Shown here one piece after another: positions 137 to 36,007 of a DNA stretch of 36,007 nucleotides (its first letter is position 1; every line of letters starts with the position of its first letter). The stretch is from a virus: UHGV virus genome UHGV-0135626; one strand, 5' to 3'. The notes under the pieces were generated by a model. It did no database searches and was not told the origin of the DNA. It saw nothing but the letters and a program-made list of their open reading frames with translations. The translations under genes and the position numbers were made by a program.

Positions 137-143
137 TAGACTA

Positions 144-710: not shown

Positions 711-775
711 GATGTGCTCCTTTCTAACAAGTGAGCACATCATAGAATTAGTAGATAGGGGGTAAATATGAAATG

Positions 776-5596: not shown

Positions 5597-5605
5597 GGAT
5601 TTGCC

Positions 5606-5872: not shown

Positions 5873-5896
5873 TCGGTCTGGGAGCTTATTTAAAGA

Positions 5897-5951
5897 CCTG
5901 CTTCTGTATATATAAATAATAAGAAACTTATTAAATATATACGGAAGCAGG
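5897..5951. repeat. Long imperfect inverted repeat with an AT-rich interior
   Basis: CCTGCTTC (5897-5904) pairs with GAAGCAGG (5944-5951); the interior also pairs imperfectly (tgtatatat...atatatacg). Confidence 0.5.
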
Positions 5952-5990
5952 CTTAATAAGACATGCCCAGACCTAATTAAACACCCCAGA

Positions 5991-6059
5991 AAACAAGTTG
6001 GTTAGCAGATGCAGTAAACAAGTTGTTTTAGAGCGCATGGACGCGCTCTGTGTGTTTTA
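5991..6059 (+). promoter_or_regulatory. Repeat cluster upstream of terS; candidate regulatory or packaging-recognition region
   Basis: AAACAAGTTG twice (5991-6000, 6016-6025), the second forming the near-palindrome AAACAAgTTGTTT (6016-6028). GTTTTAGAG twice (6023-6031, 6051-6059) flanking hairpin AGAGCGC-atggac-GCGCTCT. No clean sigma70 -35/-10 found. Confidence 0.35.
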
Positions 6060-6068
6060 GAGGGATCT

Positions 6069-7957: not shown

Positions 7958-7983
7958 GTAAGTAATTATCTAAGGTTATTCAA

Positions 7984-9558: not shown

Positions 9559-9579
9559 TAAGTAACAAAAGGAATTTTT

Positions 9580-10467
9580 ATGAATCTGTGGCAAATGCTT
9601 TTGGCCCGTCGTGGTCTGATGGATGTCGCTGAAGCGCATGAGCGTGGAGGCGCTGGCGGTGTAGCTGCTGATAATGAGCAGAGTACACAAGATCCTGACA
9701 AACAGGGTGAACAAAAAGAGCAGCCGAAGGGTGATGACGAATACGCTGGCATGACTCATGAAGAGTTACTGGCCGAACTTCGCAAAACCAAGAAAGCTGG
9801 TGCTGAACTGCTGAAAGAGAACATGAAGCGCAAAGAGAAAGAGCGCACATTGGCCGATCAGCTTGCTCAGTACGGTGAAATCGACCCGGCGCGTGCTCGC
9901 CAGCTTTTAGAAGCTGAACAGGCCGCAGAAAACGCACGTCGTGAGGCGGAGCAAGCTGAACTGGAGCGTCGTGGTGAGTTCGATGCTGTTAAAAAACAGA
10001 TGATCGAAGCACACCAGGCAGAGCTGGCACAGCGTGACGAACGTTATGCAGCACTGGAAAGTGAAAACGCATCACTGAAATCTCAATTAGTCGAGATGAC
10101 CGTGGGCGCTTCCTTCAGTAACTCTCTCTTCCTACGTGACAAAGTTCTGATGACTCCGGCAAAAGCCCGCGTGATCTACGGTTCTCATTTTGAAGTGGGT
10201 GAAGACGGTAGCGTAGTGGGTTATGACAAACCGGCAGGTCACAAAGAACGAGCTGTTCTGGTTGACGGTGAAGGTAAGCCGTTGCCGTTTGAATCCGCGA
10301 TTGAACGCATTGTGCGGGCAGATCCGGAAGCTGACGCATTGATGCGTAGCGAAGCCAAGCAGGGTGTAGGCTCACATTCCAAATCGACCTACACAATATC
10401 CCAACCGAAGAACAAGTCGACTATGGATAAGTTGGCCTCCGGTCTGGGGAAAATTGGACTTAAGTAA
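9580..10467 (+). CDS. Scaffolding protein (putative)
   Basis: 295 aa between portal and capsid genes; long charged Ala/Glu/Arg/Gln-rich helical stretch. SD AAAAGGAA 5 nt upstream. No protease motif seen. Confidence 0.55.
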   Translation: MNLWQMLLARRGLMDVAEAHERGGAGGVAADNEQSTQDPDKQGEQKEQPKGDDEYAGMTHEELLAELRKTKKAGAELLKENMKRKEKERTLADQLAQYGEIDPARARQLLEAEQAAENARREAEQAELERRGEFDAVKKQMIEAHQAELAQRDERYAALESENASLKSQLVEMTVGASFSNSLFLRDKVLMTPAKARVIYGSHFEVGEDGSVVGYDKPAGHKERAVLVDGEGKPLPFESAIERIVRADPEADALMRSEAKQGVGSHSKSTYTISQPKNKSTMDKLASGLGKIGLK

Positions 10468-21100: not shown

Positions 21101-21436
21101 ATGGAAAGACAAACGTTTAATTGGTATCCAGATTACGAATCTGAAAAGAGCGTAAAACCGAATGTAACGGTACTTAATTTTGGTGATGACTACGAGCAGC
21201 GACAGGCTCAAGGTCTTAATCGTATTAAAGAAGAATGGTCGTTAACCTTTACCAGATCATACAACGAAATTAATGCAATCGATGACTTCCTGACTGAGCG
21301 ATCAGGTGTTGAATCGTTCTATTGGGTTAATCCAAGAGGCAAGCAGATTGTAGTTGTATGTGACAGTCATACGGTCAAGCGATATCAGGGGTACTGTGTC
21401 TTAACTGCTACATTCAGACAAGTATTTGAGGCTTAA
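21101..21436 (+). CDS. Minor tail protein (lambda gpM-like)
   Basis: 111 aa, first gene after the tape measure gene, size and position matching lambda M. SD AAGGA sits in the loop of a short inverted repeat CTCACA/TGTGAG. Confidence 0.65.
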   Translation: MERQTFNWYPDYESEKSVKPNVTVLNFGDDYEQRQAQGLNRIKEEWSLTFTRSYNEINAIDDFLTERSGVESFYWVNPRGKQIVVVCDSHTVKRYQGYCVLTATFRQVFEA

Positions 21437-23588: not shown

Positions 23589-23605
23589 ACAAGGATTTTT
23601 TGAAC

Positions 23606-26600
23606 ATGGAACAGTTCAAGAAGAAAAAGCTACCGCTGTTTATTGCCGGTGCGGGTGGTAAAAAAAGCAGCAAAAGCTCCAGCCGTACACCGGTTGAAGC
23701 CGACGATACCGTAAATTCTCGTGCAATGGCCGCTATCCTCGATCTTCTTGGGGAAGGGGTAATTGGCGGTTTAGTAAATGGCGCAAGATCTATTTTTATC
23801 GACGATCTGCCGATTGTAAATGAAGACGGTTCCTCCAACTTCAGCGGAATCACATGGGATTTTCGCGACGGTTCGCAAGACCAGACTCCAATGTCTGGCT
23901 TTGATTTCGTTGAAACGCCTAAATCCGTCAATATCCAGTTAAAAAAAACACATTATGTAACGGTTTCAATCGATAACGATGAAGCTGATCGGGTTCGTGT
24001 CATCATAAAGTTTCCTTCTTTGCGAAGCATAGATAAAAAAACTGGTGACACGAACGGTACAACCGTTGAGTACAAGTTCCAGATAGCAAATGGCGACTCA
24101 ACATTTGTAGATGTGGTCGCAGAAGGTGAAAAAAGCGTTGGCATTAAGTTAACAGCAAAGAAGACAGGTGTTTATTACCGTAGCTATGAGCTGAAGCTGC
24201 CTAAGCCTGGACGCGCATACAAGGTTCGTGTAGTCCGTATTACCGATGATAACAGCAGCCAGTATCTCTATAACGATACATGGGTGGATTCAATAGGTGA
24301 GATTGTCGATACACCGATGAACTACCCAAACTCTGTGCTGGTGGGGTTGAAGGTTAATTCTGAGCAGTTCGGCAGCACTATGCCTTCTCGCTCTTATCTG
24401 GTGCGTGGCCTAAAAATTCGTGTGCCATCAAACTATAACGAATCCAGTAACACTTACGTTGGAGTATGGGACGGTACGTTTAAGCTGCTGTCTTCATCCA
24501 ATCCAGCCTGGATTCTTTTCGACCTGTTAACGAATGAACGATATGGGCTTGGCCAATTTGTATCAGAGTCCATGATTGACCTCGGCCAGCTGTACCAGAT
24601 CGGTCGATATTGTGACGAAGAGGTTGATGATGGCTTTGGTGGCAAAGAGAAACGTTTTGCAATCAATACGCAGATTACCAGTCGACAGGACGCATACCGA
24701 CTAATTCAGGATATTGCTGGAGCATTCCGCGGCATGGTGTTTTGGGCTGGTGGCATGGTTAACATCATGCAGGATAGCCCGTCAGATCCGGTAATGATGT
24801 TTACCAACTCTAACGTCAAAGATGGATTGTTTACCTATAAAGGTTCTGCGCGTAAAGATCGCCCATCCGTTGCGCTCGTAACCTACAACAACAAGGAGGA
24901 CGGTTATAAGCAAAACATCGAGTACGTTGAAGATCAGGACGCAATGCGCCGTTATGGTGAGCGTAAGACAGAAGTCGTAGCATTTGGCTGTACAAGCCGA
25001 GGCCAGGCCCACCGAGTTGGTTTATGGCTTTTGTATACAGCCAGAATGGAGTCGGATGTAATTACATTTACTGCCGGCTTAGATGCGTCATTCCTGATGC
25101 CTGGTGAAACCGTTCTGATTCAGAACAAATATCGCGCAGGCAAACGTAACTCAGGTCGAATTGTGGCGTTTACCAAAAACAGCGTCACACTCGATGCGCC
25201 TGTGTCGTTAGCCAAAGGCGGCTGCTTTATTCGAATACTGAATCAGGAAGGCAAAATCGTTGAACGCGATGTTCTTGAAACTGGCGAAAATATAACAAAA
25301 GTTACGTTTTCAAAAGCCCTGTCTTCGGCTGAAACGCCTGTTTTGAACGGCGTCTGGACTATTACAGAACCAGACCTCGAACCTATGCGCGTTCGCATTG
25401 TTAACATAGCACAGGGGGAAACGCCGGGTAGCTTTGACATCACCGCTGTTGAGAACAATCCGTCTAAATATGAGGCGATCGACAATGGTGCAACGCTTAT
25501 CCCGCAGAATACGACGGTATTGGACCCGACTTATTCCAAGCCGTCTAATTTGCAAATCACTGAAGGGACTTATCTCTCAAGCCCTGGCAACCTGTCAGTA
25601 AAACTGACTGCAACATGGGAAGGGAAATCTCCAGAGTATTGGATCAGTTGGCGACGTTCTGATGAAAACAATGTATCGAACTGGCAATCGGCGCGTGTAA
25701 CCGAAGAGCAATACGAAATCGTTAATGTTGCGGAGAATGGACGCTACGACTTCCAGCTGTATGCGGTTTCATTCAACGGTAAAAAAACAGAGATTATCAG
25801 TACCGTTTATCAGGTGCTGGGCACAATGACACCGCCAGATGCCCCAACGTCATTAACGGCCGTTGGAGACTATCGTAATGTGATACTGAATTGGGTTAAT
25901 CCAGATTCGGTAGACCTTGATCACATTAATGTTTACGCATCCCAGACCAACAATCTGGATACAGCGAAACTGATCGCAGAGTCTGCAAGCACCACCTTTA
26001 CACATGCTGGTCTTGGGGATAGCGAAACGTGGTATTACTGGGTTCGTGCGTCAAACAAGCGCGGTATGTTGAGTCCTCCGAACTCAAACTTGGGTACAGA
26101 GGCGACGACTCGCGATGTGCTGTCGTTCCTGACAGGCAAAATTACGTCTTCTGAACTTGGCCAGACTTTACTTGAGGAAATCGACTCAAAAGTATCTCAG
26201 GAGGCGGTGGATTCCATCTATCAACAGATGGAAGAAAGTCTGAAAATCCTCGATGACAAATTTACAGATGCCGATCAGCGGCTTGAAGAAGCTCAAAACA
26301 ATCTTAAAACGGAAGTTTCCGGTACTGTCAGCAAGGTGGAAGACGCGCTTAAGGAGGTTGCAAACTCTAACGCTGCCTTAATTCAGTTGCAGGAAACTGT
26401 ATCAGAGCAGGGTAAAGCTGTAGCTGGAGCTGTTGAGGCGGCAAATGCAGCACTTGACAATTCATCGGCTTTAATTGCGGAGGAGCGTGAAGCACGAGTT
26501 GAGGGTGACTTGGCAAACGCGAAAGAAATCGAGGCGATGAAGTCAACTGTAGATAGCAGTTTAGCCACCATTGAAGAAATGAAAAAAACCGTGGCTGAAG

Positions 26601-27766
26601 TTGAACGTTCTAGTGCCGAAGTTACGACAAACATTGAGGCATTGGCTAAAACAAACATCGATCTTGCTTTGCGTCAGGATGAAGATCAGCACAAGCAGAT
26701 GGTGAGTAATGCGAAGATCACCACAACTCAGAAGGCTTTTGCAGACGATATATCTGCAATGGCTACGAAAATGGAGGAAATTCGCGCTGAAATAAATGAG
26801 GATATCAGAGCTTCAATCACTGAAGAAACAACGGCTCGTGTAGATGCTGATAATGCTATTGCAAGCAGAATCACCAAACTTGAATCAAAGATTAACGATG
26901 ATATTTCTGCCGCAATTGTGAGTGAACAAGAGGCACGAGCTAGTGCCGATGAAGCACTTTCAAAAGAAATACTATCGTTACAAGCCAAAATTGAAGGCGA
27001 TATTAGTGCAGCTATATCTGAAGAAAAAATTGCCCGAGCAACTGCTGATGAATCTTTAGCACAACAGATAACCACATTGAAGAGCCAGACGGGTAAAGAT
27101 ATTAAGGCGGCTGTAGCAGAAGAGACGAAAGCCAGAACTGACGCTGATTCGGCTTTGGCTTCTAGTATCACTAATCTACAGGCGCAAACGAGCAAAGATA
27201 TTAATGCCGCGATTACGTCTGAGGCAACTGTGCGCACAAACGCCGACAATGCTCTAAGTGGACGAATTGACACCTTAAAAGCATCAGTTGATGGAAATAC
27301 AGCGACAATTCAAGAGCAGGCAACTGCTATTGCTGATACTAACAAAAAGGTTTCAACCGCGTGGACGTTGAAGATGGAAACGTCAACAAGTGGTGGGCAA
27401 AAATATGTCGCAGGTATTGCGCTTGGAATTGACACCACGGGGCTTTCCCAGTTTTTGGTGCAAGCAGATCGATTTGGTCTAGTTAACTCAGTTAACGGAA
27501 AGATCACCACACCATTTGTTATCGAAAACAGCGTTGCATACATGAATGGTGCGTATATTAAGGATGGTACTATCACAAATGCAAAGGTAGGTGACTTGCA
27601 ATCAACAAACTTCGTAAGCGGACGAGTCGGATGGCGATTTGGTAAAAATGGAACGCTTGAGATCAACGGCAATAGTGGCGGCAATGGGAGATTGGTTATA
27701 AATGGTCAGAGGATTGACGTTTATGATGACAATAATGTCCTTCGAGTGAGGATTGGTCAGCTTTGA
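23606..27766 (+). CDS. Host specificity protein / central tail fibre (lambda gpJ-like)
   Basis: About 1386 aa, the largest tail gene after the L/K/I-like genes; fibronectin-III-like segments and a C-terminal repeat region. Start at ATG 23606 (SD AAGGA); the track ORF starts with TTG at 23600. Confidence 0.85.
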   Translation: MEQFKKKKLPLFIAGAGGKKSSKSSSRTPVEADDTVNSRAMAAILDLLGEGVIGGLVNGARSIFIDDLPIVNEDGSSNFSGITWDFRDGSQDQTPMSGFDFVETPKSVNIQLKKTHYVTVSIDNDEADRVRVIIKFPSLRSIDKKTGDTNGTTVEYKFQIANGDSTFVDVVAEGEKSVGIKLTAKKTGVYYRSYELKLPKPGRAYKVRVVRITDDNSSQYLYNDTWVDSIGEIVDTPMNYPNSVLVGLKVNSEQFGSTMPSRSYLVRGLKIRVPSNYNESSNTYVGVWDGTFKLLSSSNPAWILFDLLTNERYGLGQFVSESMIDLGQLYQIGRYCDEEVDDGFGGKEKRFAINTQITSRQDAYRLIQDIAGAFRGMVFWAGGMVNIMQDSPSDPVMMFTNSNVKDGLFTYKGSARKDRPSVALVTYNNKEDGYKQNIEYVEDQDAMRRYGERKTEVVAFGCTSRGQAHRVGLWLLYTARMESDVITFTAGLDASFLMPGETVLIQNKYRAGKRNSGRIVAFTKNSVTLDAPVSLAKGGCFIRILNQEGKIVERDVLETGENITKVTFSKALSSAETPVLNGVWTITEPDLEPMRVRIVNIAQGETPGSFDITAVENNPSKYEAIDNGATLIPQNTTVLDPTYSKPSNLQITEGTYLSSPGNLSVKLTATWEGKSPEYWISWRRSDENNVSNWQSARVTEEQYEIVNVAENGRYDFQLYAVSFNGKKTEIISTVYQVLGTMTPPDAPTSLTAVGDYRNVILNWVNPDSVDLDHINVYASQTNNLDTAKLIAESASTTFTHAGLGDSETWYYWVRASNKRGMLSPPNSNLGTEATTRDVLSFLTGKITSSELGQTLLEEIDSKVSQEAVDSIYQQMEESLKILDDKFTDADQRLEEAQNNLKTEVSGTVSKVEDALKEVANSNAALIQLQETVSEQGKAVAGAVEAANAALDNSSALIAEEREARVEGDLANAKEIEAMKSTVDSSLATIEEMKKTVAEVERSSAEVTTNIEALAKTNIDLALRQDEDQHKQMVSNAKITTTQKAFADDISAMATKMEEIRAEINEDIRASITEETTARVDADNAIASRITKLESKINDDISAAIVSEQEARASADEALSKEILSLQAKIEGDISAAISEEKIARATADESLAQQITTLKSQTGKDIKAAVAEETKARTDADSALASSITNLQAQTSKDINAAITSEATVRTNADNALSGRIDTLKASVDGNTATIQEQATAIADTNKKVSTAWTLKMETSTSGGQKYVAGIALGIDTTGLSQFLVQADRFGLVNSVNGKITTPFVIENSVAYMNGAYIKDGTITNAKVGDLQSTNFVSGRVGWRFGKNGTLEINGNSGGNGRLVINGQRIDVYDDNNVLRVRIGQL
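26700..27340 (+). repeat. In-frame tandem coding repeats (about 28-aa units) within the J-like gene
   Basis: Six to seven successive units of the form D/E-I-x-A-A-I-x-x-E-x-x-A-R-x-x-A-D-x-A-L-x-x-x-I-x-x-L; the boundaries are approximate. Confidence 0.6.
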
Positions 27767-27859
27767 TTGTGGAAAAAAATAATCATTTCTGTAAAAATAG
27801 GTAGGTACTAACTTAATGGTGGGCATGGAACGCCCACCATATCTAGGAGCAAAGGATAA

Positions 27860-30205
27860 ATGTGGTACAGGGAAGGTACAATAAATCTCACTAAAGGAAA
27901 TAAAACTGTAGTGGGAACAGGCACAGCCTGGGGAGTGACGGCGAACGGCGTCCTTCCAGGTATGATATTGATTGGCCCCGATAATAAGTTATATGAAATA
28001 AAATCAATCGAGAGTGACACTTCGTTAACTCTTGTTGAAGCCTACGGTGGTAGCACCCAAACAAATGTCCCGTGCAGAATAATTACGACCTATGAAGGTG
28101 ATTTAACCCAATTTAGTGCTCGTTTTACTGCGCTTATGTCTCGCATGTCAGCCGATTCAAAAATGATGCGTAGTTGGTTGACTGCCGTGGATGAAATAAC
28201 AATTGAGCGTGAAGATGGCACGGAATTAACCGTAAAATCCCTTACGCAGATCGTTAATGAGCACAATGAGAACCTAGAATGGTATAAAGAAAATACTCCC
28301 ATAATTAACACCGCTGCACAAAAAGCTAAAGAGGCGGCAGCGAGCGCAACAGCGGCCAAAAAATCAGAAACTAACTCAAAAGCGAGTGAGACAGCTTCAA
28401 AGACTAGCGAAACTAATGCGAAAAATAGCGAGGTAGCTGCAAAATCGAGTCAGAGTGCTGCCGCAAACTCCGCTACCGCAGCAAAAAACAGCCAGGATGC
28501 AGCAGCCGAAAGCGAGAGTGCTGCAGCTGGTTCTGCGACTTCAGCAGCTGGATCAGCAACTGCTGCGGCTAACAGCCAGAAAGCTGCGAAGACGAGTGAA
28601 ACTAACGCAAAGTCCAGCCAGACGGCAGCAAAGACCAGCGAAACGAATGCCAAAGCCAGCGAAACTGCGGCGAAAAGCAGTCAGGATGCAGCAGCCGAAA
28701 GCGAGAGTGCTGCAGCCGGTTCTGCAACAGCGGCAGCTAATAGCCAAAAAGCTGCAAAAACCAGTGAAACTAACGCAAAGGCGAGCGAAACAAAAGCAGC
28801 AGCCAGCGAGACAGAAGCAACGTCAGCCGCAACAAGAGCAGAGAATGCAGCCAGGATTGCAGAAGATGCCGCTGATCCTGCTTCTGTCCCTCCGCTTCCT
28901 GATATCTGGCTACCCTTGAATGATTCTCTGGAAGCGATAACAGGGTATGCGCCGGGGTATAAAACAATAACCATCGGCAGCGATGAAATCACTGTGCCAG
29001 TTAATGGCATATGCCAATTTAGCCGGGCTTCATCTGCAACGTATATTGATAAGTCCGGGCATATTACCGTGGCAGGGAATAACGTTCCTCGTTTTGAAAA
29101 ATATGGTTTGCTGATAGAGAATCAGCGAACAAACATGTTCGTAAATAGTTTTAATCCTGATGCGTGGAATAAAAGCGGTGGTATATCTGTAACATCATCA
29201 ACAGATGAATTTGAGTTTAAATATGGACGTTTCACAGTAGGAAGCGACATAGCAGGAACGACAACAGGGAGAAATATATGCACAGTTGCTGGTAATAGAG
29301 GCATAGATGTGACTGGCGATGATCAGTACAGTAAAGGTCCGTATGTTACCGCGTCGTTCAGGGTAAGAAGTGATCTCAATGTTCGCGCACGTATCCGTTT
29401 TGAACGGTATAACTCGGAAGGATACACTTTCCTTTGTGACGCCTATTTGTCATTACAGACCCATGAACTACAAATTACGGGTGATAATGCCCAGCTATTA
29501 ACAGCAAACTTTGAAATCGATCCAGGTAGTGGATGGATATATTTTCAGGCAACCCTGAAATGTCTGCCAGAATGGGGAATGGTTGGTACGCAGTTGCAAA
29601 TTGCAGCCGACAGAGCTGTGGGGTCTTTTGCAACAGGTGACTGGATAGAAGTAACCACCCCGCAATTTGAGTATGGTGCTTGTGCAACTTCCTTTATCAT
29701 AACGACAACAGAGCCAGCTACTCGTGCATCAGATTTATGTAAATTTCCGCTGATGAAAAATATGTATACCATGCCTTTTACGTTCATGGTGGAAGTCCAT
29801 AAAAACTGGTTTATTTCTCATAATGCTGCACCGCGAGTAATTGATACAGAAAACCATCAGTCAGGTGCTCCATTTATCATGGGATTTGGCTCTTCTGGAA
29901 CTATCAGTCAGGACGGTTATCCCTATTGTGATATAGGCGGGGCTAACCGACGTGTATATGAGTCATGCGGAGTAAGAGATCTCGTTATGGGATTCAGGGT
30001 TAAGGCTGACGGCATGACATGCTCATTTGCAAATAAGCATATAAGCACAGAAACAAAAACAGTATGGAAATATATTCGTGAAGCTGCTGTGATTCGTATC
30101 GGGGGACAAACGACGACAGGATTACGACACCTTAATGGACATATAAAAAACCTCCGTTTCTGGAACAGAGCATTGTCAGATACGCAGCTTAAGGAATACG
30201 TATAA
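27860..30205 (+). CDS. Tail fibre protein with Ala/Ser/Glu/Thr-rich repeat shaft
   Basis: 781 aa: conserved N-terminus, low-complexity repeat region, then a Gly/Tyr/Trp-rich C-terminal domain with lower GC, as expected for a receptor-binding domain. Confidence 0.75.
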   Translation: MWYREGTINLTKGNKTVVGTGTAWGVTANGVLPGMILIGPDNKLYEIKSIESDTSLTLVEAYGGSTQTNVPCRIITTYEGDLTQFSARFTALMSRMSADSKMMRSWLTAVDEITIEREDGTELTVKSLTQIVNEHNENLEWYKENTPIINTAAQKAKEAAASATAAKKSETNSKASETASKTSETNAKNSEVAAKSSQSAAANSATAAKNSQDAAAESESAAAGSATSAAGSATAAANSQKAAKTSETNAKSSQTAAKTSETNAKASETAAKSSQDAAAESESAAAGSATAAANSQKAAKTSETNAKASETKAAASETEATSAATRAENAARIAEDAADPASVPPLPDIWLPLNDSLEAITGYAPGYKTITIGSDEITVPVNGICQFSRASSATYIDKSGHITVAGNNVPRFEKYGLLIENQRTNMFVNSFNPDAWNKSGGISVTSSTDEFEFKYGRFTVGSDIAGTTTGRNICTVAGNRGIDVTGDDQYSKGPYVTASFRVRSDLNVRARIRFERYNSEGYTFLCDAYLSLQTHELQITGDNAQLLTANFEIDPGSGWIYFQATLKCLPEWGMVGTQLQIAADRAVGSFATGDWIEVTTPQFEYGACATSFIITTTEPATRASDLCKFPLMKNMYTMPFTFMVEVHKNWFISHNAAPRVIDTENHQSGAPFIMGFGSSGTISQDGYPYCDIGGANRRVYESCGVRDLVMGFRVKADGMTCSFANKHISTETKTVWKYIREAAVIRIGGQTTTGLRHLNGHIKNLRFWNRALSDTQLKEYV
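28330..28870 (+). repeat. Imperfect tandem DNA repeats encoding the fibre shaft
   Basis: Near-identical segments recur about 190 bp apart, e.g. CAGGATGCAGCAGCCGAAAGCGAGAGTGCTGCAGC at 28492 and 28682, and AGTGAAACTAACGCAAAG at about 28588 and 28759. Confidence 0.7.
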
Positions 30206-30474
30206 TGCGGGATATAACATTACGATTCGATAACAGAGAACAGTTTAACGCAATTGTATATGACAGTGGCCTGTTCAGTCTTGAAGAAGAAAATGGGGTT
30301 CTTGTTGATGTTATTGGCTGCATTATTGATTACGAGGAGCCAGAAAACGAAAGATGTACAGGCATTGATCGCGGTGGTTTTTTCGTAAACATGAGGATTG
30401 TTGATAGCAGTAAAAACATATCTTCTTTAATGCCTTTCATTACGACAGATCAGCATGTAAGGACATGGGCTTAA
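30205..30474 (+). CDS. Hypothetical protein in the fibre cassette (possible fibre assembly or adaptor protein)
   Basis: 89-aa ORF with TAATG overlap with the fibre gene stop and SD AAGGAA. AT-rich; no motif recognised. Confidence 0.45.
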   Translation: MRDITLRFDNREQFNAIVYDSGLFSLEEENGVLVDVIGCIIDYEEPENERCTGIDRGGFFVNMRIVDSSKNISSLMPFITTDQHVRTWA

Positions 30475-30486
30475 TGGAGTAAGACA

Positions 30487-31527
30487 ATGGTTACAAAAAC
30501 AGTAATTCCTGATGACATCAAAACGCTAAAATCGGATGTTAGTAAATTAAAAACCGATCAAGGAAACTACGCAACAAAATCTTATGTAGACAATAAAACA
30601 ACATGGAATGGTTATTGCAATTTAATCTATGATCAAAAAACATTGCCAACAACTGGAACTATATTCAGCGGTAAGCTGCATTTGTCAAATAAGACTGGTG
30701 AAACGGAAAACGCTTATAGTGACATATATACCAGAAAAAATATTGATGGTACTAAAGATACAATGACGAGGATCGTCACACATAACGGGACAAAAGGTAT
30801 CTTTTGGGACTTTAGTGATCTTAACGGAGGAACTTTAATTTTTCCAGGCAGTGGTGGTTATCTTAAGATGGGGAACTGCCTCATGTCGTATGGTGTGCGG
30901 GGAAGTAACGCGCTTATTAAGTTTGATTACACCGACACATTACAGATCAAATATGCCAATCATGGGTCAACCATGACATTAAACACACAGGGAACCGCTT
31001 ATGCTGGTGTTACTGCTCAATTGTGGGGCAACTCCAGTCGTCCAGTTGTTTATGAAATTAGGGATGATGGCGGGCTTTTTTTGTTTTATGCACAAAGGAA
31101 CCCAGATAAAACCTATCAGCTTGAGATAAACGGGCCATGCAAGGCTACATCATTCGACCAGGTGTCGGACAGAGATCTTAAAGAAAACATTCAGGTTATT
31201 GATAATGCCACTGAGCGCATCAGATTAATGAATGGGTATACTTACCGTCTCAAGTCTAATGGTATGCCTTATGCTGGCGTTATTGCGCAAGAGGCACTTA
31301 ATGCAATCCCTGAATCAGTTGGTAGCACAATAAAGTACAAGAGCGGGGACAATGGGTCTGATGGAGAAGAGGGAGAAAGATACTATACCGTCGATTACTC
31401 AGGCGTAACGGGTTTGCTTGTTCAGGTAGCCAGAGAGTCAGACGACAGGATAACAGCACTGGAAGAAGAAAACGCAGAATTAAGACAAAGATTATCTGCA
31501 ATTGAGGCGGCGCTTGCGTCTAAATAA
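30487..31527 (+). CDS. Tail fibre protein with C-terminal intramolecular chaperone (peptidase S74-type) domain
   Basis: 346 aa, SD GGAG 7 nt upstream. Residues 227-234 SDRDLKEN match the autoproteolysis site of endosialidase/T5-type fibre chaperone domains; a terminal helical segment (EEENAELRQRLSAIEAALASK) follows. Confidence 0.75.
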   Translation: MVTKTVIPDDIKTLKSDVSKLKTDQGNYATKSYVDNKTTWNGYCNLIYDQKTLPTTGTIFSGKLHLSNKTGETENAYSDIYTRKNIDGTKDTMTRIVTHNGTKGIFWDFSDLNGGTLIFPGSGGYLKMGNCLMSYGVRGSNALIKFDYTDTLQIKYANHGSTMTLNTQGTAYAGVTAQLWGNSSRPVVYEIRDDGGLFLFYAQRNPDKTYQLEINGPCKATSFDQVSDRDLKENIQVIDNATERIRLMNGYTYRLKSNGMPYAGVIAQEALNAIPESVGSTIKYKSGDNGSDGEEGERYYTVDYSGVTGLLVQVARESDDRITALEEENAELRQRLSAIEAALASK

Positions 31528-31533
31528 TATCAA

Positions 31534-31556
31534 GGGGCCGAGCGCCCCGTTTTATT
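31534..31556 (+). terminator. Rho-independent terminator after the fibre gene
   Basis: GGGGC-cgagc-GCCCC followed by GTTTTATT. Confidence 0.65.
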
Positions 31557-31569
31557 GGGTAGGATGAAA

Positions 31570-31854
31570 ATGGATATAACACCTTTCCTTCATGCGCTTT
31601 GTGCTGTGGCTGCGCAGCTACTGATTGGTCTTTTTACCGGGAACTGGGTTTACGGGGCGATAGCCGGTTGTACGTTCTTCATTGCGCGTGAACACACCCA
31701 GGCAGAATATCGCTGGATTGAAATGTTCGGGCATGGCAAGCGTATGAATATGCCGTGGTGGGGCGGTTTTGATCCGCGCGCTTGGGATGTAGCAAGCCTG
31801 ATGGATTTTGCGATTCCACTTTTAGCGTGCACATTATTATATATTTTTATTTAA
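31570..31854 (+). CDS. Small membrane protein with two predicted transmembrane helices (holin, moron or exclusion protein)
   Basis: About 94 aa from ATG 31570 (SD AGGA 5 nt upstream); hydrophobic segments AVAAQLLIGLFTGNWVYGAIAGCTFFIA and ASLMDFAIPLLACTLLYIFI. Lies between a terminator and an AT-rich promoter region. Confidence 0.45.
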   Translation: MDITPFLHALCAVAAQLLIGLFTGNWVYGAIAGCTFFIAREHTQAEYRWIEMFGHGKRMNMPWWGGFDPRAWDVASLMDFAIPLLACTLLYIFI

Positions 31855-31946
31855 TATAAGATTAACTGAGATATAGCTTACGCAAAGAAGGTAATAAATA
31901 TAAAGAGAGATGTTCTGAGGTAATTTATTGTTGGTGTTTAAGGTTA

Positions 31947-31976
31947 TTTACAGATAGGTAAGTGCATACCTATATA
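31947..31976 (+). promoter_or_regulatory. Candidate sigma70-type promoter with an embedded operator palindrome
   Basis: -35-like TTTACA (31947-31952), 18-bp spacer, -10-like TATATA (31971-31976). The spacer holds the perfect inverted repeat ATAGGTA-agtgca-TACCTAT (31954-31973). Confidence 0.45.
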
Positions 31977-32035
31977 AAAAAGATAAAATGTGATATAAAT
32001 CCGCCATCCCGATTTGACTTTTCATGGAGGAAAAT

Positions 32036-32359
32036 ATGTCGAACGAGATGGCGGGCGTAACAACAGAGCAAGTTGAGCGCATTGCCGCGATCGTTGCTCG
32101 GGAGGTTGTCGGCAAATTAGGTAAAGAGCTACGTGAAGAAATTGGCCAGGAGGTCAACGATCAGCTGAAAACCTACTTTGGTGATATGACCCCGGCGCAA
32201 CATAGTATTCAACACTCCAACCTGGACAAACTCCTTAACCGGTTAGATTCCATCTCCAGTGGGTTCTTTGGCGGCATTGTTTCTAAAATAACGTCGTTCA
32301 TTATTACCGCACTGCTTTTGGGGTTAGCCGCGTATGGCGTGAAAAATGGACTGCAATAA
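32036..32359 (+). CDS. Small protein with one C-terminal transmembrane helix (holin or antiholin candidate)
   Basis: Start at ATG 32036 with SD GGAGG 5 nt upstream (track ORF starts 32024). C-terminal hydrophobic segment ITSFIITALLLGLAAYGV; directly upstream of the putative endolysin. Confidence 0.45.
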   Translation: MSNEMAGVTTEQVERIAAIVAREVVGKLGKELREEIGQEVNDQLKTYFGDMTPAQHSIQHSNLDKLLNRLDSISSGFFGGIVSKITSFIITALLLGLAAYGVKNGLQ

Positions 32360-32372
32360 CAGGAGATCAAGG

Positions 32373-33065
32373 ATGAAGACTCCGAGAGGCATTCGTAACA
32401 ATAACCCCGGTAATCTTGATAAAGGATCGCCGTGGCAAGGTCTGGTTGCTAATCCAGACGAACCCCGCTTTTGCACGTTTAAAGACCCTGTTTGGGGGAT
32501 TCGTGCGCTGGCGGTGACTCTAATTACCTACCACGACAAACGTCGCGCAAAAGACGGCTCAAGTATCGATACCATTCGTGAAGTTATTGAACGCTGGGCA
32601 CCGCCGAACGAAAATAACACTGACGCCTATATTAATGAGGTGTCCAAAGCAGTTGGTGTAACCGCAGACATGATTATCGATCTGCATGATTACGACATCC
32701 TTCGACCTTTAGTTGAGGCAATCATTCGCCACGAGAATGGCCGAGGCCCGCTAAAAACGCTGAACACCTGGTATGCGGCAGAAGTTATTGAGGAAGGTCT
32801 GCGTCGAGCTGGCGTCGTTAAGCCGGTGAAAACGGTGAAGGCTGTTCCTGTAACGAAAGAAACCGCAGGCGCAACTGTTACAGCAGGTATTGGTCTGGCG
32901 CAGCTTGCCGATGTTATGCCGCAGATTTCCGCTGCTATGGATAAAGCACAAGGTCATATCTCTAGCGGGGATACAGTACGCATCATCTTCGGTATTGCCA
33001 CTATTGTTGTGGCAGGATTCATTGCCTGGTCGCAGGTAAGAAAACACCAGAAAGGGATGGTCTAA
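32373..33065 (+). CDS. Putative endolysin / cell-wall hydrolase with C-terminal transmembrane anchor
   Basis: Start at ATG 32373 (MKTPRGIRNNNPGNL) with SD AGGAG 7 nt upstream. Function inferred from position directly before Rz/Rz1; C-terminal hydrophobic segment IIFGIATIVVAGFIAW. No catalytic motif confidently recognised. Confidence 0.4.
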   Translation: MKTPRGIRNNNPGNLDKGSPWQGLVANPDEPRFCTFKDPVWGIRALAVTLITYHDKRRAKDGSSIDTIREVIERWAPPNENNTDAYINEVSKAVGVTADMIIDLHDYDILRPLVEAIIRHENGRGPLKTLNTWYAAEVIEEGLRRAGVVKPVKTVKAVPVTKETAGATVTAGIGLAQLADVMPQISAAMDKAQGHISSGDTVRIIFGIATIVVAGFIAWSQVRKHQKGMV

Positions 33066-33066
33066 T

Positions 33067-33318
33067 ATGCTAGGCAGCCTGATGACAAAGCTAAAAGTTG
33101 CTTTGATTATGCTGGCTGCCGTTCTTTTCGTTCTTGTCGGCGCTTACACGATGGGCGGAAATGCGGCGCGACGAGCAATGGAAGAGAAGGCAAAACAGGA
33201 AGACAGAAAACGACTTCAAAACACAGTGAAAGTGGTGAATGAGACGAGCAGTAAAATACGTCAGAAAGATGCTTCTGCCGTTCATCGTGAGTTGTATGAT
33301 AAGTGGGTGCGTCATTAA
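33067..33318 (+). CDS. Rz: Inner-membrane spanin (Rz-like)
   Basis: 83 aa with N-terminal transmembrane segment (LKVALIMLAAVLFVLVGAY) and a charged helical periplasmic part; a lipoprotein gene is embedded in the +1 frame. Confidence 0.65.
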   Translation: MLGSLMTKLKVALIMLAAVLFVLVGAYTMGGNAARRAMEEKAKQEDRKRLQNTVKVVNETSSKIRQKDASAVHRELYDKWVRH

Positions 33319-33454
33319 ACCACAAACAGCCAGCGTGTTGTTCTGCGATGGGGCTGAGCCTATCTATATCAGCAATAATGATGTAATGACTGAAGAAACC
33401 GAACGCCAAATCCTTTTTCACAATACGATGGGAGAGAGGGTTTGTGGTTGGTGA
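33239..33454 (+). CDS. Rz1: Outer-membrane lipoprotein spanin (Rz1-like), overlapping Rz in another frame
   Basis: 71-aa ORF starting inside the Rz gene and running past its stop. Lipoprotein signal with lipobox ISGC (MRRAVKYVRKMLLPFIVSCMISG|C); short mature peptide. Confidence 0.6.
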   Translation: MRRAVKYVRKMLLPFIVSCMISGCVIKPQTASVLFCDGAEPIYISNNDVMTEETERQILFHNTMGERVCGW

Positions 33455-33461
33455 TGTCGAA

Positions 33462-33483
33462 GTTCCCCTCAAATGAGGGGAAC
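33462..33483. terminator. Stem-loop between convergent genes; candidate bidirectional terminator
   Basis: GTTCCCCTC-aaat-GAGGGGAAC, a 9-bp stem between the Rz1 stop (33454) and the minus-strand toxin stop (33487). Confidence 0.55.
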
Positions 33484-33486
33484 ACA

Positions 33487-34008
33487 TTATTCTTCGAACA
33501 ATTTTTCGATAGATTTTGTAGGATAGAACAAAGAACGCTCGTTGTTACCAACCAGCTGGATAAAGCCTAAACTTTTATAAAACGCCTTGGCTTTGTCATT
33601 TAACGCCTCAACGAAAAGTCCATGAATGCCTACAGCAAGAGATGCATTGTACACAACGCGCATTGCATGTGTTACAAGCATTGAGCCAAATCCTTGACCT
33701 TGAAGGGACTTGTCCAAAGCCAGCCTACCCAAAGTAACACTTGGAACATTCCGATAAGGAACCTTCTTTTGTTTGCTTCTTGAAGGTAAGGACTCCTTTT
33801 CAAAACAACTACCTGACAAAGTGTAATATCCTAACACTTTTGGCCTTTCTTCTTGAGTGCAAAGCACATAAGCACGAAGAATTTTTCCCTCATGCTGCCT
33901 TTTTAAGTGGTTGGCTAAAAAGGCGTTTAGTGACTCTTCGCCGCAATCAAAACCGTTTAGATCATAATCTTTCTCTCCAGAGAAAATCTCTATCGTTGTA
34001 TTGCTCAC
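33487..34008 (-). CDS. GNAT-family acetyltransferase toxin of a type II toxin-antitoxin pair (TacT/AtaT/KacT-like)
   Basis: 173 aa; GNAT motifs (QGQGFGSMLVTHAM acyl-CoA loop, AKAFYKSLGF). Immediately downstream of, and co-oriented with, a DUF1778-type antitoxin gene. Confidence 0.8.
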   Translation of the reverse strand: MSNTTIEIFSGEKDYDLNGFDCGEESLNAFLANHLKRQHEGKILRAYVLCTQEERPKVLGYYTLSGSCFEKESLPSRSKQKKVPYRNVPSVTLGRLALDKSLQGQGFGSMLVTHAMRVVYNASLAVGIHGLFVEALNDKAKAFYKSLGFIQLVGNNERSLFYPTKSIEKLFEE

Positions 34009-34015
34009 GAGTAAA

Positions 34016-34285
34016 CTACTCCATGCTTTTCAGACGATCAGCAGCTCGTTTCAGCTTGTCGTTCGGTGCCGGAGGATTGCTTATAGCGTCCATAACCAGA
34101 TTCCAGGATTCTTCATTCAGAACTAGTCTACGGTGTTGCTCTATAACTTTCACGGCACGTTCAGATGCACTGCTAACCATAAACTGAGTAATGCTCTGGT
34201 TAGACATTGCGGCAGCTTCCTCGATGATGCTTTTATCGTCATCGGTTAATCTCAAATCGATGCGCTGCTTTTTTAGTGCTGACAT
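34016..34285 (-). CDS. DUF1778-type (RHH) antitoxin, TacA/AtaR-like
   Basis: Start at ATG 34285 (MSALKKQRIDLRLTDDDKSIIEEAA), preceded by a perfect SD AGGAGG with 5-nt spacer, giving 89 aa. The track ORF extends to a TTG at 34324. Confidence 0.8.
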   Translation of the reverse strand: MSALKKQRIDLRLTDDDKSIIEEAAAMSNQSITQFMVSSASERAVKVIEQHRRLVLNEESWNLVMDAISNPPAPNDKLKRAADRLKSME

Positions 34286-34324
34286 GTATTCCTCCTGATG
34301 GCCGTGATGTAGGAAGGCCATCAA

Positions 34325-34603
34325 TCTCCTCTGTTCAAACTGAGTTTTCGACTCAAAAATTACTTTAAAAGGCTATAGCCCATTACGTGTGCATTATCAA
34401 ATTGTGTACGGCATATCACCGTACTTGTAATATAGAGGTCATTGTTACTTTTTTCAACAGACAAATACAAGCTATGATTGCCAATTGTTAACCACAACCT
34501 ACCATTTAACCTTTACACCGCAGCCGTAGGCATTTAGGCTATATCACATATAAGAAAACAAGTTGTTTCAGACGATAATTATATACGCAAAGGGAACTCT
34601 CCA
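34325..34603. promoter_or_regulatory. Divergent control region between the toxin-antitoxin operon and parA; candidate operators or centromere
   Basis: 279-bp non-coding gap holding palindrome GGCTATAGCC (34371-34380), inverted repeat GTACGG-N7-CCGTAC (34406-34424) and near-palindrome AAACAAgTTGTTT (34556-34568) about 35 bp before parA. Confidence 0.45.
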
Positions 34604-35272
34604 ATGACCAAGATCTTTGTGGTTGGCGGCACAAAGGGCGGGCCTGGCAAATCCACCGTTGCCCAGCAAATTGCCGTTTGCCTGAAAGTCAAAAAGAAGA
34701 AGAAGGTTTATATTACCGATATAGATATTCAGCGCACGACAACGAGCTGGTGTGAAGACCGTCGACAGAACGAAGACCTTGAGCTGATTCCTTTTGCATA
34801 CGTTCAGGATGACATCATTAAGCACCTAAAATCGCTTCAGGGTAGAGCTGAGTTTGTAGTGGTAGATGCTGGTGGCTTCGACTCCGAAATTCAGCGACAA
34901 GCGATGCTGATGGCTGACGTTATCATTATCCCGCTGCGTCCTAAGCGTCGTGATTTGAAATCTTTACGTGACATCGATCCTATTATCGACAATGTTCGCA
35001 ATGTAAACGATAAAGTGAAGGTCCGCGCGGTCATGAACCAGTGCCCGGCTTTGCCATCACAAGTGTCTCGCATTCTGGCGGCTAAAGAGATTGTTGAGAC
35101 GTTTGGAATCGAGTCTGCGCCAGTCAATCTATATAACCGCAACGTCTATGATGATGCGGAAGAGTCTGGTCGTTCTATCTTTGAAATGACCGGTAGCGAG
35201 CGCGACAAAAAGGCGGAAGCCGAGTTTGAAGAATTTGTAGATTATCTGTTGAGTCTGGAGGAAGAAGAATAA
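34604..35272 (+). CDS. parA: ParA-family partition ATPase (small type Ib form)
   Basis: 222 aa with deviant Walker A GGTKGGPGKST at the N-terminus and no N-terminal HTH extension. SD AAAGGGAA; TAATG overlap with the next gene. Confidence 0.85.
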   Translation: MTKIFVVGGTKGGPGKSTVAQQIAVCLKVKKKKKVYITDIDIQRTTTSWCEDRRQNEDLELIPFAYVQDDIIKHLKSLQGRAEFVVVDAGGFDSEIQRQAMLMADVIIIPLRPKRRDLKSLRDIDPIIDNVRNVNDKVKVRAVMNQCPALPSQVSRILAAKEIVETFGIESAPVNLYNRNVYDDAEESGRSIFEMTGSERDKKAEAEFEEFVDYLLSLEEEE

Positions 35273-35631
35273 TGTCCATGAAAATGGGTGACCTAGCAAA
35301 GCGCAAAGAGCCTGATGCACCGGCTAAGAACACAACTCCTTTGCGCCAACCAGTCAGACCACAAGGACGCCCGACTCGTGGCAAAGAGAAAATTAAAAGC
35401 CGCACTATGTCACTGGAAGACGAATACTTCGAGCTTCTGGAAATGATGAAGTTTATCCCTCGTTTCGAGAAGTTCACCCGCTCTGATGTGATTCGTGCTG
35501 CTATTTTCCATCTGGCAGAGAAGTCACCGCAGGAAATCGAGGACATCGTAAAGCTGAACGAGGCGATCACAGCTGCCGATGTCACGATGCGTACCGATGA
35601 AATTAAACGCGAGTTGATGAAGAAAGGTTAA
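35272..35631 (+). CDS. Small RHH-type centromere-binding partition protein (ParG-like)
   Basis: 119 aa, translationally coupled to parA. Basic, probably disordered N-terminus and a C-terminal ribbon-helix-helix-like region. Confidence 0.65.
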   Translation: MSMKMGDLAKRKEPDAPAKNTTPLRQPVRPQGRPTRGKEKIKSRTMSLEDEYFELLEMMKFIPRFEKFTRSDVIRAAIFHLAEKSPQEIEDIVKLNEAITAADVTMRTDEIKRELMKKG

Positions 35632-35632
35632 T

Positions 35633-35661
35633 AATGTGGGCTGTCTAGCCCACATTATTTT
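35633..35661 (+). terminator. Rho-independent terminator after the partition operon
   Basis: AATGTGGGCT-gtct-AGCCCACATT (10-bp stem) followed by ATTTTAATT. Confidence 0.7.
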
Positions 35662-35682
35662 AATTAAAGTGGAGTGATAATT

Positions 35683-36007
35683 ATGCATTCGTTAGTATTT
35701 GCATTTAAAAACATACTCAAGAATGTTATAAACATACTAGGGATGTTAAATATTTTTTTGTCTGTGAGGGTGAGGAGAAAAGATATAAAAGATAAATTAA
35801 AGGAACTTAACAAAGAAAAAGAACAATTAAAAAGCGAAGAAATTATTATTGATTTATACAAGAAAAAACTCGCATCTAGCAAGGGGAAAGCTAATAATAA
35901 AATCAAAGGAAAAATAATTCACTATATTATTGCTAGAGAGTTGGGGAATGATCCTGATAATGAAGATTTGCGACATAATCTTTTTACAAAGATAAAAGAA
36001 TCAGAAG
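35683..36007 (+). CDS. Partial CDS (5' end) of an AT-rich gene: N-terminal hydrophobic segment then Lys/Glu-rich helical region
   Basis: Open frame from ATG 35683 to the window end (at least 108 codons, no stop), SD GGAG 8 nt upstream. Not in the ORF track because it is truncated. GC content far below the window average. Confidence 0.5.
   Translation, partial: MHSLVFAFKNILKNVINILGMLNIFLSVRVRRKDIKDKLKELNKEKEQLKSEEIIIDLYKKKLASSKGKANNKIKGKIIHYIIARELGNDPDNEDLRHNLFTKIKESE

Follow-up and report, generated by a model that had tools for sequence, protein, structure and literature searches.

What is the protein of 346 amino acids (aa) that is encoded behind the tail genes of the UHGV virus genome UHGV-0135626, how would it be carried on the virion, and which stretch of DNA has moved with its gene? 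The DNA analysed, referred to as the window, is a stretch of 36,007 nucleotides (nt) of this genome. It is textbook knowledge that tail fibers can bear an S74 chaperone, cleave themselves and be exchanged horizontally. A sequence-only reading, made without database searches, had proposed that an 89-aa open reading frame (ORF) and the 346-aa fiber behind it form one AT-rich, horizontally exchanged cassette and that the fiber ends in a self-cleaving chaperone domain. Both ORFs were confirmed on the + strand, at 30205-30474 and 30487-31527. The identity of the 346-aa protein as a tail fiber, its chaperone domain and the exchange are, taken jointly, highly probable.

The window is identified as the late region (virion and lysis) of an SSU5-like phage-plasmid of Escherichia by its collinear high identity to SSU5-group genomes, which extends to the genes for virion, lysis and partition functions. 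Over positions 1-25000, identity was 97.9% to CMS-2020a, 98.0% to Cyrano, 95.0% to PhiR41_1 and 81.2% to Salmonella phage SSU5; CMS-2020a aligned at 97.9% identity over 804-25000 and at 97.3% over 31991-35423. In PLSDB, 725 plasmids matched positions 27000-34000, 700 of which are non-mobilizable, and the fiber architecture recurred there in three plasmids (two of Escherichia marmotae, one of E. coli); CP146383 was 95.6% identical over 10 kb. The fiber locus is preceded by genes for a tape measure protein, the tail tip and a 1388-aa J protein, and is followed by genes for a candidate holin, an endolysin, spanins, a GNAT/DUF1778 pair and ParA. Coordinates of the features are given in Table 1.

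The chaperone domain and its predicted cleavage

The sequence SDRDLKEN, put forward as an autoproteolysis signature at residues 227-234, was found at exactly these residues and opens the match to PF13884 (residues 227-278, E=1.8e-12, 47.8 bits versus a cut-off of 22). The string is therefore one element of a domain match that passes the cut-off, and no coincidence of letters. In an alignment of the C-terminal 131 residues of 14 divergent sequences (down to 21% identity, including the distal fibers of IrisVonRoten, VogelGryff and AKFV33 at 21-31% identity and a 227-aa variant), S227, K232, G264, I266 and A267 were invariant. S227, K232, D228, L231 and N234 were at least 90% conserved in an alignment of 46 sequences, and the chaperone part was the most conserved of the family, with a mean column entropy of 0.38 compared to 0.61-0.74 elsewhere. 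The profile of the C-terminal alignment matched the C-terminus of DT57C LtfA (8hqz_d, 1e-16), S16 gp37 (6f45, 2e-16), the ICA domain of MyRF (7dc3, 2e-12) and the chaperone domain of the GA-1 neck appendage (3gud, 0.0028); the first residue of the deposited GA-1 chain is the aligned Ser, in SDERHK. T5 pb1 and the K1F endosialidase were absent from the PDB matches of this profile at E up to 1. With this homology to solved chaperone domains, and with its extreme C-terminal position ending in a helical coiled coil, the fiber has, as far as its sequence can tell, every testable feature of the S74 intramolecular-chaperone family, in agreement with the domain assignment of the sequence-only reading.

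Known counterparts are the chaperones of T5 pb1 and the K1F endosialidase, to which the fiber is related through the shared Pfam family and through DT57C LtfA. As here, both have a C-terminal Ser...Lys dyad (S-x4-K) and end in a helical coiled coil; the cut just before the Ser and the release of the chaperone to expose the tip are predicted for the fiber too. T5 pb1 is a single 1396-aa chain attached to the tail itself, whereas here a separate 346-aa distal subunit bears the chaperone. In T5 pb1 the bond between Thr1263 and Ser1264 is cut, with Ser1264 activated by Lys1269; cleavage requires correct folding of the trimer, and the cleaved protein alone inhibited adsorption and competed for the receptor, while the uncleaved form masks the binding tip (PMC4690869). 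Ser227 and Lys232 have the spacing of Ser1264 and Lys1269. The predicted cut falls between Val226 and Ser227 (nt 31164/31165) and would convert a 38.2-kDa precursor into products of 25.1 and 13.2 kDa. In such a process the chaperone would nucleate folding of the trimer, and after correct folding the Ser227/Lys232 dyad would cut its own chain, leaving a 25-kDa mature chain with its distal tip exposed.

Two sets of observations weigh against this account. First, no counterpart could be assigned to the folding-sensor residues Arg1250/Asp1239 of T5, although conservation reaches at least 90% at R185, E190, N215 and G216. Second, the AlphaFold2 (AF2) model is that of a monomer of an obligate trimer, with a predicted local distance difference test score (pLDDT) of 74, its body gave only spurious beta-sheet matches (e.g. 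to porins), and cleavage, trimerisation, location in the virion and receptor are all inferred. The failure to map the upstream sensor residues of T5 and K1F onto the distal fiber would be expected if the chaperone domain were present but did not cleave, so that the 38-kDa protein worked uncut or the domain was just a trimerisation tag. This is very improbable, given the conservation of the dyad and of D228, L231 and N234 in both alignments and the lowest entropy of the family in this very part; moreover, as the uncut form of T5 masks the binding tip (PMC4690869), selection should retain cleavage.

In PhiR47_1 (L004, 6143-7183) the annotation divides the distal fiber into pieces of 294 aa and 37 aa, yet in translation the chaperone part is still 98% identical. 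A stop codon or frameshift apparently splits the gene beyond the cleavage site, within the stretch for the chaperone domain, and may reflect an error in sequencing or inactivation in the recent past.

The distal fiber and its attachment

The 346-aa protein was 97% identical to the E. coli protein cluster 'tail fiber domain-containing protein'. Of 5426 complete E. coli genomes, 787 had a DNA match to the region, and in 135 of these at least 80% of it was covered; genes of 97-98% identity to that of the fiber are annotated under the name of this cluster in more than 100 such genomes. The fiber itself is ordinary, being already represented and annotated in public genomes.

No tail-anchor domain was found in the distal fiber by Pfam and phrog scans. 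In every fiber-bearing related locus examined, the gene stands behind those for a proximal fiber ending in a module here called StfC (C-terminal part of the side tail fiber protein Stf) and for a protein of about 90 aa, represented in the window by the 89-aa protein p89. Such loci were found in PhiR11_1, PhiR47_1, Tritos and E. coli CE10 (lambdoid), in JenP1 and VogelGryff (Queuovirinae) and in IrisVonRoten and AKFV33 (T5-like). On the grounds of this constant place and of the missing anchor domain, the 346-aa protein is assigned as the outer (distal) subunit of a two-part side tail fiber, with docking as the predicted mode of attachment.

Each distal fiber behind a p89 homologue, whether of 227, 346 or 557-586 aa, was found to start with the motif T.T.IP.DI..LK or a close variant. 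In the 346-aa fiber, residues 1-40 also include a short helix with a heptad-like pattern (I11, L14, V18, L21), placed at residues 9-29 in the AF2 model, and the gene is preceded by a Shine-Dalgarno sequence GGAG at 30476-30479. Residues 1-40 were 84-100% identical where the body was 65-95% identical, and in Mantel tests on pairwise identities among 33 distinct loci the first 20 aa tracked StfC (r=0.68) and p89 (r=0.70). Residues 1-15, or 1-40 with the helix, would dock the fiber on the StfC/p89 end of the proximal fiber, and residues 41-226 would form a beta-rich receptor-binding shaft and tip.

Some S74 fibers attach by an N-terminal anchor of their own, as described for Gp114 of the Wifcevirus ManiWeber in the available passages of PMC11990801, and the 346-aa protein could likewise be an independent short fiber fixed directly to the tail tip and not carried by Stf. 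Such an arrangement has only a small probability, since the stretch before the body is just about 40 residues long and gave no match to an anchor domain, and the same N-terminal motif occurs across unrelated tails (T5-like, Queuovirinae, lambdoid and SSU5-like), always after StfC and p89, whereas the N-terminus of Stf varies with the type of tail.

The mature receptor-binding part had been put at about 226 aa. As a length for the mature chain this figure stands by homology to T5 pb1 and to the start of 3gud. As a length for the receptor-binding part it does not, because about 40 of the 226 residues are docking motif and coiled coil, which leaves at most about 186 aa for receptor binding. The AF2 model of the body is all beta, with pLDDT 75-92 over residues 50-220. 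The family profile matched a T4 gp34 repeat at residues ~175-222 (4uxe, 2e-7), and residues 140-224 were ~30% identical to the P2 gpH, P1 and Fels-2 fibers by tblastn; by these similarities the T4 gp34/P2 gpH-type motif is a shaft element and gives no clue to the receptor. Among close homologues, the most variable stretches of the body were residues 41-50, 71-80 and 91-100. The homology search with the N-terminal 226 aa that the sequence-only reading had suggested did not identify a receptor class, and residues 1-226 matched no family of sialidases, beta-propellers or beta-helices, even with E allowed to reach 10. The receptor is probably a surface glycan, e.g. O-antigen or lipopolysaccharide, as judged by analogy with the lateral fibers treated in the available passages of PMC8594841 and PMC4690869.

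Homologues in JenP1 and ESCO3 carry the GenBank labels 'endosialidase-like' and 'endosialidase chaperone' (in JenP1 'putative endosialidase-like protein'), and these names would suit an endosialidase-like enzyme, that is, a capsule depolymerase spike. This reading was rejected as extremely improbable. The match is confined to the chaperone domain (residues 227-278), which alone accounts for the label on the homologues; no enzyme domain was found, the 186-aa body is too small for a known depolymerase, and its similarities are instead to the fiber shafts of T4 gp34 and P2 gpH.

A minimal distal fiber of 227 aa was observed behind identical StfC and p89 in nine loci (L007, L008, L012, L026-L028, L030, L031 and L034, at 5283-5966). 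Its docking motif is the same, and it has a coiled coil and a chaperone domain of diverged sequence (S109-S-I-R-Y-K114), with a predicted mature part of 108 aa.

The proximal fiber Stf and the small protein p89

The N-terminal 160 aa of Stf were 98.8% identical to SSU5-like PhiR41_1 and had no match in the lambdoid relatives, and the repeat region matched DT57C LtfA (8hqz_d, 8e-7). StfC was 98-99.8% identical to that of lambdoid prophages, 50.6% to IrisVonRoten Gp22 and 31% to AKFV33 ORF137 (403 aa); with the homologues of JenP1, VogelGryff and Tritos included, identities ranged over 31-51% across 403 aa. The module matched the GTA_spike_fiber family (NF048003, E=3.1e-12, 47.4 bits versus a cut-off of 36). 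At its end, Pfam Laminin_G_3 was matched below the cut-off (E=7e-4, 20 bits versus 27.6), in line with the available passages of PMC11990801, where a 'galectin-like domain' is predicted for the C-terminal end of the homologue Gp22. No Peptidase_S74 match was found in the 781-aa Stf by Pfam scan. StfC occurs joined to anchors resembling the SSU5, lambda (Stf), T5 (pb1) or P2 (gpH) types, and the available passages on AKFV33 report ORF137 in virions (PMC3326045). Residues 1-162 of Stf would anchor the fiber on the tail of this phage, followed by the repeat shaft and then by the ~400-aa StfC.

The ATG of p89 overlaps the stop codon of stf (TAATG), and its translation would be coupled to that of stf. 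The protein matched phrog_1361 (E=1e-30), a family of unannotated function; there was no match in NCBIfam and, save for a chance 13.8-bit hit, none in Pfam at E up to 10. Tfa-family (Caudo_TAP) chaperones were considered for p89 and set aside, there being no match to them in the Pfam and NCBIfam scans. Relatives numbered 376 of ~91-93 aa (clusters at 90% identity), with 115 representatives at 50% identity, mostly of 85-110 aa, and where named by their source they are called hypothetical. Homologues occupy the same gene position in T5-like phages, Queuovirinae and lambdoid prophages, and 11 columns were invariant when p89 was aligned with those of JenP1, Tritos, IrisVonRoten, VogelGryff, AKFV33 and PhiR41_1. 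The available passages of the BASEL, DT57C, AKFV33 and phage-plasmid papers give no function to the small protein.

That the 89-aa ORF and the fiber make up one cassette did not hold. p89 co-varied far more closely with StfC (r=0.96) than with the distal fiber body (r=0.38). When two p89 proteins were at least 95% identical, their StfC modules were always at least 98% identical and their fiber bodies as little as 13%; fiber bodies at least 60% identical were found with p89 proteins as low as 29%. In PhiR41_1, L045 and L046 the membrane protein accompanies StfC and a homologue of p89, and no distal fiber, docking motif or S74 domain was found within the locus. By these comparisons p89 belongs evolutionarily with the upstream StfC and not with the distal fiber. 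The co-variation could partly reflect crossover sites in the conserved N-terminus of the fiber and not function.

On account of the co-variation and the fiber-less loci, and of the lack of a chaperone domain in StfC itself, the role of p89 would be tied to StfC. In lambda Stf/Tfa and P2 gpH/gpG, as here, a fiber gene is followed by a small, co-varying and translationally coupled gene; lambda Tfa is about twice the size of p89, and here a further fiber gene follows. By analogy with this arrangement, and not by family membership, p89 could be a dedicated folding and assembly partner (chaperone) of StfC, a possibility that falls slightly short of an even chance.

An adaptor role appears unlikely. 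As a structural adaptor, p89 would be kept in the virion at the StfC end and offer a binding surface for the N-terminal peptide of the distal fiber. It lies between both fiber genes in every locus examined, the first 20 aa of the distal fiber correlate with it about as well as with StfC, and its homologue IrisVonRoten Gp23 is annotated 'tail fiber protein'. Along each of the giant PKD-repeat proteins P0262, P0277, P0286, P0292 and P0298, the p89 profile also matched weakly at 5-11 places (7-13 bits per repeat), with the shared pattern ...F.D...F....I.W.......(D/E)P......Y.V.VR(I/V).DD, and accessory domains of virions often have PKD/Ig-like folds. That p89 is very distantly derived from a PKD/Ig-like domain may be considered as a lead only; single matches are weak, AF2 predicted helices for p89 (pLDDT 67.6), and the searches by fold gave no information. 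Retention of StfC and p89 in the three loci without a distal fiber argues against an adaptor, as does the published model of IrisVonRoten, which joins Gp24 to the proximal fiber and, in its available passages, gives the small protein no role (PMC11990801). In the available passages on AKFV33, mass spectrometry of virion gel bands reported four proteins, among them ORF137 and not ORF136 (PMC3326045), which is weak evidence, as a protein so small would not have been in the bands analysed. In the gene fusions P0308 and P0333, the C-terminal domain is likewise of unassigned function (phrog_6034/14311).

StfC and p89 would together form a portable two-gene 'socket' for interchangeable distal fibers. 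It is tentatively suggested, at rather less than even probability, that p89 is an unrecognised but obligatory third component of a widespread 'plug-and-socket' system, in which StfC and p89 would be the socket, TxTxIPxDIxxLK the plug, and p89 a folding factor or adaptor.

The exchanged block

The horizontal exchange claimed for 30205-31527 was borne out mainly by genome comparison and not by GC (guanine-plus-cytosine) content, and for a larger unit, which extends from 28345 to 31561-31811. The lambdoid loci L002, L004 and L006 matched exactly 28345-31811 with 91.5-96% identity, and matches to PhiR41_1 were restricted to 27065-29134 and 31561-33451. Homology to CMS-2020a ended at 28347 and resumed at 31991, with unrelated sequence between. 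There, CMS-2020a (L049, CP053388.1 reverse complement), the nearest relative by backbone, has instead a single Stf of 1576 aa (4460-9190), which shares the N-terminal anchor and bears an S74 chaperone domain at its own C-terminus; an ORF of 279 aa (9200-10039) comes next. By these comparisons, the exchanged unit is Stf after residue 162, the 89-aa gene, the fiber gene and part of the next gene, and SSU5-like phage-plasmids have single-chain fibers, two-part fibers or fibers with no distal subunit (the last in PhiR41_1, L045 and L046).

The right-hand crossover region, 31561-31811, lies in the gene of the small membrane protein m99 and matched both the backbone relative and the lambdoid donors. 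m99 has hydrophobic segments at residues 3-27 and 74-94 and directly follows the fiber genes in PhiR11_1, PhiR47_1, Tritos, the CE10 prophage and PhiR41_1. The GC-rich hairpin seven bases 3' of the fiber stop codon is inside the block common to lambdoid prophages. m99 was seen always to close the side-fiber module, being the last late-operon gene in lambdoid prophages and standing just before the lysis genes in SSU5-like phage-plasmids; it was 90-96% identical across elements with otherwise unrelated backbones.

Exchange was also observed below the level of the block. DNA common with the Nonagvirus JenP1 was confined to the fiber gene (30523-31463, 92.8% identity). Within that gene, sub-block 30595-30894 was 54-61% identical to PhiR47_1 and an E. 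marmotae plasmid, and sub-block 31045-31344 was 64-68% identical to PhiR11_1 and the same plasmid, with flanks of 95-100%. As judged from these alignments, exchange takes place at three nested scales (whole block, distal gene and sub-gene blocks), and the fiber gene is itself a mosaic. The block 28345-~31811 would have been acquired by recombination from a pool common to lambdoid prophages, Queuovirinae and T5-like phages, with one crossover in stf just past the anchor domain and the other in the small membrane-protein gene.

The two ORFs are AT-rich as claimed (GC of 30205-31527, 0.403 compared to 0.465 for the whole window; 2.9th percentile of windows of the same size), but the difference is modest and the dip begins upstream, in stf. 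The proposed check of composition by codon position was carried out on 39 mechanically chosen ORFs (longest non-overlapping), for which GC at third codon positions (GC3) had a mean of 0.464 and a standard deviation (SD) of 0.068. GC3 was 0.344 in the 89-aa gene and 0.369 in the 346-aa gene, only ~1.4-1.8 SD below the mean; it was 0.368 in the 781-aa stf gene and 0.345 in its last 403 codons (28994-30202). Over 28994-31527, GC was 0.414, compared to a mean of 0.470 (SD 0.021, minimum 0.413) for 2534-nt windows of the 36 kb, 0.1% of which were lower. The low GC is genuine (~2.7 SD at the 2534-nt scale) but modest, and the low-GC unit is the C-terminal part of Stf with the 89-aa gene and the fiber gene, not just the two ORFs named. 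GC alone was rejected as proof of exchange, the deviation being modest.

If there had been no exchange, the low GC would be ordinary scatter or an effect of amino acid content. The small deviation of the two genes in GC3 would allow this, and equally low values were found elsewhere in the window (21101-21436, 33487-34008 and both ends). It is nonetheless a very remote prospect, in view of the sharp homology breakpoints against a backbone relative of 97.9% identity, the 91-97% identity to unrelated phage lineages and the presence of the dip at third codon positions too. The exchanged block has a GC of 0.414-0.436 compared to 0.477 for the phage-plasmid backbone, and it is compositionally foreign in lambdoid prophages as well (J gene 0.56, block 0.445). 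Because its GC is nearer that of the T5-like (0.39) and Queuovirinae (0.42-0.43) loci, there is a hint, though no proof, that the pool is supplied by low-GC virulent phages.

Relation to known fiber systems

By gene content, the locus is of the three-gene lateral fiber type of AKFV33, IrisVonRoten and Queuovirinae, with a StfC proximal fiber (phrog_1419/5939, GTA_spike_fiber), a phrog_1361 protein and a distal fiber bearing motif and S74 domain. Gene order in AKFV33 (ORF137 ltpA, ORF136, ORF135 ltpB) and IrisVonRoten (Gp22, Gp23, Gp24) is as here. Their small proteins are homologous to p89 at 31-33% identity, and their distal fibers have the same N-terminal motif and S74 end, at 574 aa in IrisVonRoten and 557 aa in AKFV33 compared to 346 aa here. 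Both are virulent and have a T5 pb1-like Stf anchor, whereas here the anchor is SSU5-like and the element a temperate phage-plasmid. Infection by IrisVonRoten of hosts that express O16 is attributed to these fibers (PMC8594841). In the available passages of Humolli et al. (PMC11990801), IrisVonRoten Gp22 and Gp24 are modelled as a proximal fiber carrying a distal fiber, and 'T-shaped' fibers are described as combining a Gp12-like receptor-binding domain (RBD1) and a T5-like one (RBD2) in one chain of ~570 aa (Humolli et al. 2025). The 'T-shaped' dual-RBD type (IrisVonRoten Gp24, Gordonclarkvirinae, Wifcevirus) was rejected for the fiber described here, the body of which has 186 aa as against that ~570-aa chain. 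By tblastn the dual-domain body of Gp24 showed no similarity to the body here beyond the first 17 residues, and no Gp12-like family was found in the distal fiber by Pfam scans. The short body and the lack of Gp24- or Gp12-like similarity suggest that the fiber is a simpler, single-tip member of the type.

The same three-gene layout is found in JenP1 (gp23-gp24-gp25; Nonagvirus, Queuovirinae), which is virulent and whose gp25 (351 aa) is the closest homologue from a characterised phage, with 91% aa identity over residues 1-226. The C-terminus of its proximal fiber is 47% identical and its small protein 28%; this low identity outside the distal fiber indicates that the distal fiber gene alone was recently shared.

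In the branched lateral tail fibers of DT57C (LtfA and LtfB), as predicted here, a second fiber protein is attached through the first and not to the tail. According to the available passages on DT57C, both fiber proteins have S74 domains and no small intervening gene is mentioned, whereas here a proximal fiber without S74 is followed by p89. A DT57C-type pair was rejected for this locus, in which the 781-aa Stf has no S74 match and the 346-aa protein is the sole bearer.

Other features of the window

Table 1. Features of the fiber locus (positions in the window)
Feature	Position	Strand	Basis or remark
Stf, proximal side (lateral) tail fiber	27860..30205	+	781-aa ORF; phrog_1419 'tail protein' E=6e-289
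Stf residues 1-162, tail-anchoring N-terminus of the phage-plasmid backbone	27860-28345	+	homology
Stf residues 163-378, Ala/Ser/Thr-rich repeats, probably coiled coil	28346-28993	+	DT57C LtfA match
StfC, Stf residues 379-781 (C-terminal module)	28994-30202	+	homology
GTA head-spike-fiber-like domain, Stf residues 418-623	29111..29728	+	NCBIfam NF048003
Possible lectin-like (ConA/LamG-like) strands, Stf residues 729-777	30044..30190	+	sub-threshold Laminin_G_3
p89, 89 aa, acidic, 10.3 kDa, pI 4.4, phrog_1361	30205..30474	+	ORF; profile match
Distal fiber, 346 aa	30487..31527	+	ORF; phrog_4563 'tail fiber protein' E=2e-200
Distal fiber residues 1-40, docking motif T3-x-T5-x-I7-P8-x-D10-I11-x-x-L14-K15 and short helix	30487..30606	+	
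Distal fiber body, residues 41-226, beta-rich, presumed receptor-binding	30607..31164	+	AF2 model
Peptidase_S74 intramolecular chaperone/autoprotease, residues 227-346, 13.2 kDa	31165..31527	+	Pfam
Predicted dyad Ser227 and Lys232	31165-31167 and 31180-31182	+	conservation, S-x4-K spacing
GC-rich hairpin GGGGC-CGAGC-GCCCC	31534..31548	.	consensus scan only; terminator-like on both strands
m99, small membrane protein, phrog_1443	31555..31854	+	likely true start ATG 31570, 94 aa
Exchanged host-recognition block	28345..31811	+	genome comparison; left junction 28345-28347
Right junction	within 31561-31811 (31991 vs CMS-2020a)		inside m99 gene; genome comparison

The J protein gene (23600-27766) contains an Ala/Glu/Ser-rich coiled-coil insertion at 26211-27098 with repeated 'DISAAI..E.ARA.AD.AL' units. 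Compared to CMS-2020a and PhiR41_1, this segment was 67-69% identical or unmatched, with 91-95% identity upstream, and it appears to be a second variable host-range region.

Among the lysis genes, the candidate holin downstream was named from the 'Holin' annotation at the matching site in phage Cyrano and SSU5. The endolysin (32346-33065, +; 239 aa, phrog_873) has a hydrophobic C-terminal segment (IIFGIATIVVAGFIAW), and its N-terminal 130 aa are similar to transglycosylase domains of tape-measure and injection proteins; the homologue in PhiR41_1 bears the note 'internal (core) protein'. An Rz-like spanin (33067-33318, +; phrog_1026) is overlapped in another frame by a 71-aa ORF (33239-33454, +) with a lipoprotein-like signal (…MISGC…), an arrangement resembling an overlapped Rz/Rz1 spanin pair.

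A GNAT acetyltransferase gene (33487-34008, -; phrog_1758, GC3 0.368) adjoins a small gene (34016-34324, -) annotated as DUF1778 in an E. marmotae plasmid. Together they look like a toxin-antitoxin system of the TacT/TacA type, next to ParA (34604-35272). At the ends of the window (1-1000 and 35500-36007) GC was 0.33-0.37, below that of the fiber module; the ORFs there encode 199 aa (144-743, -; GC 0.36) and 80 aa (35664-35906; GC 0.26).

Significance

The junctions at 28345, ~30523-30594 and ~31811 are precise points for host-range engineering of SSU5-like phage-plasmids, which can carry resistance genes. Through the conserved 15-residue N-terminal motif, T5-like phages and Queuovirinae, which are virulent, temperate lambdoid phages and phage-plasmids would draw on one pool of distal fibers, and the small phrog_1361 protein is the one conserved, uncharacterised component of the locus.

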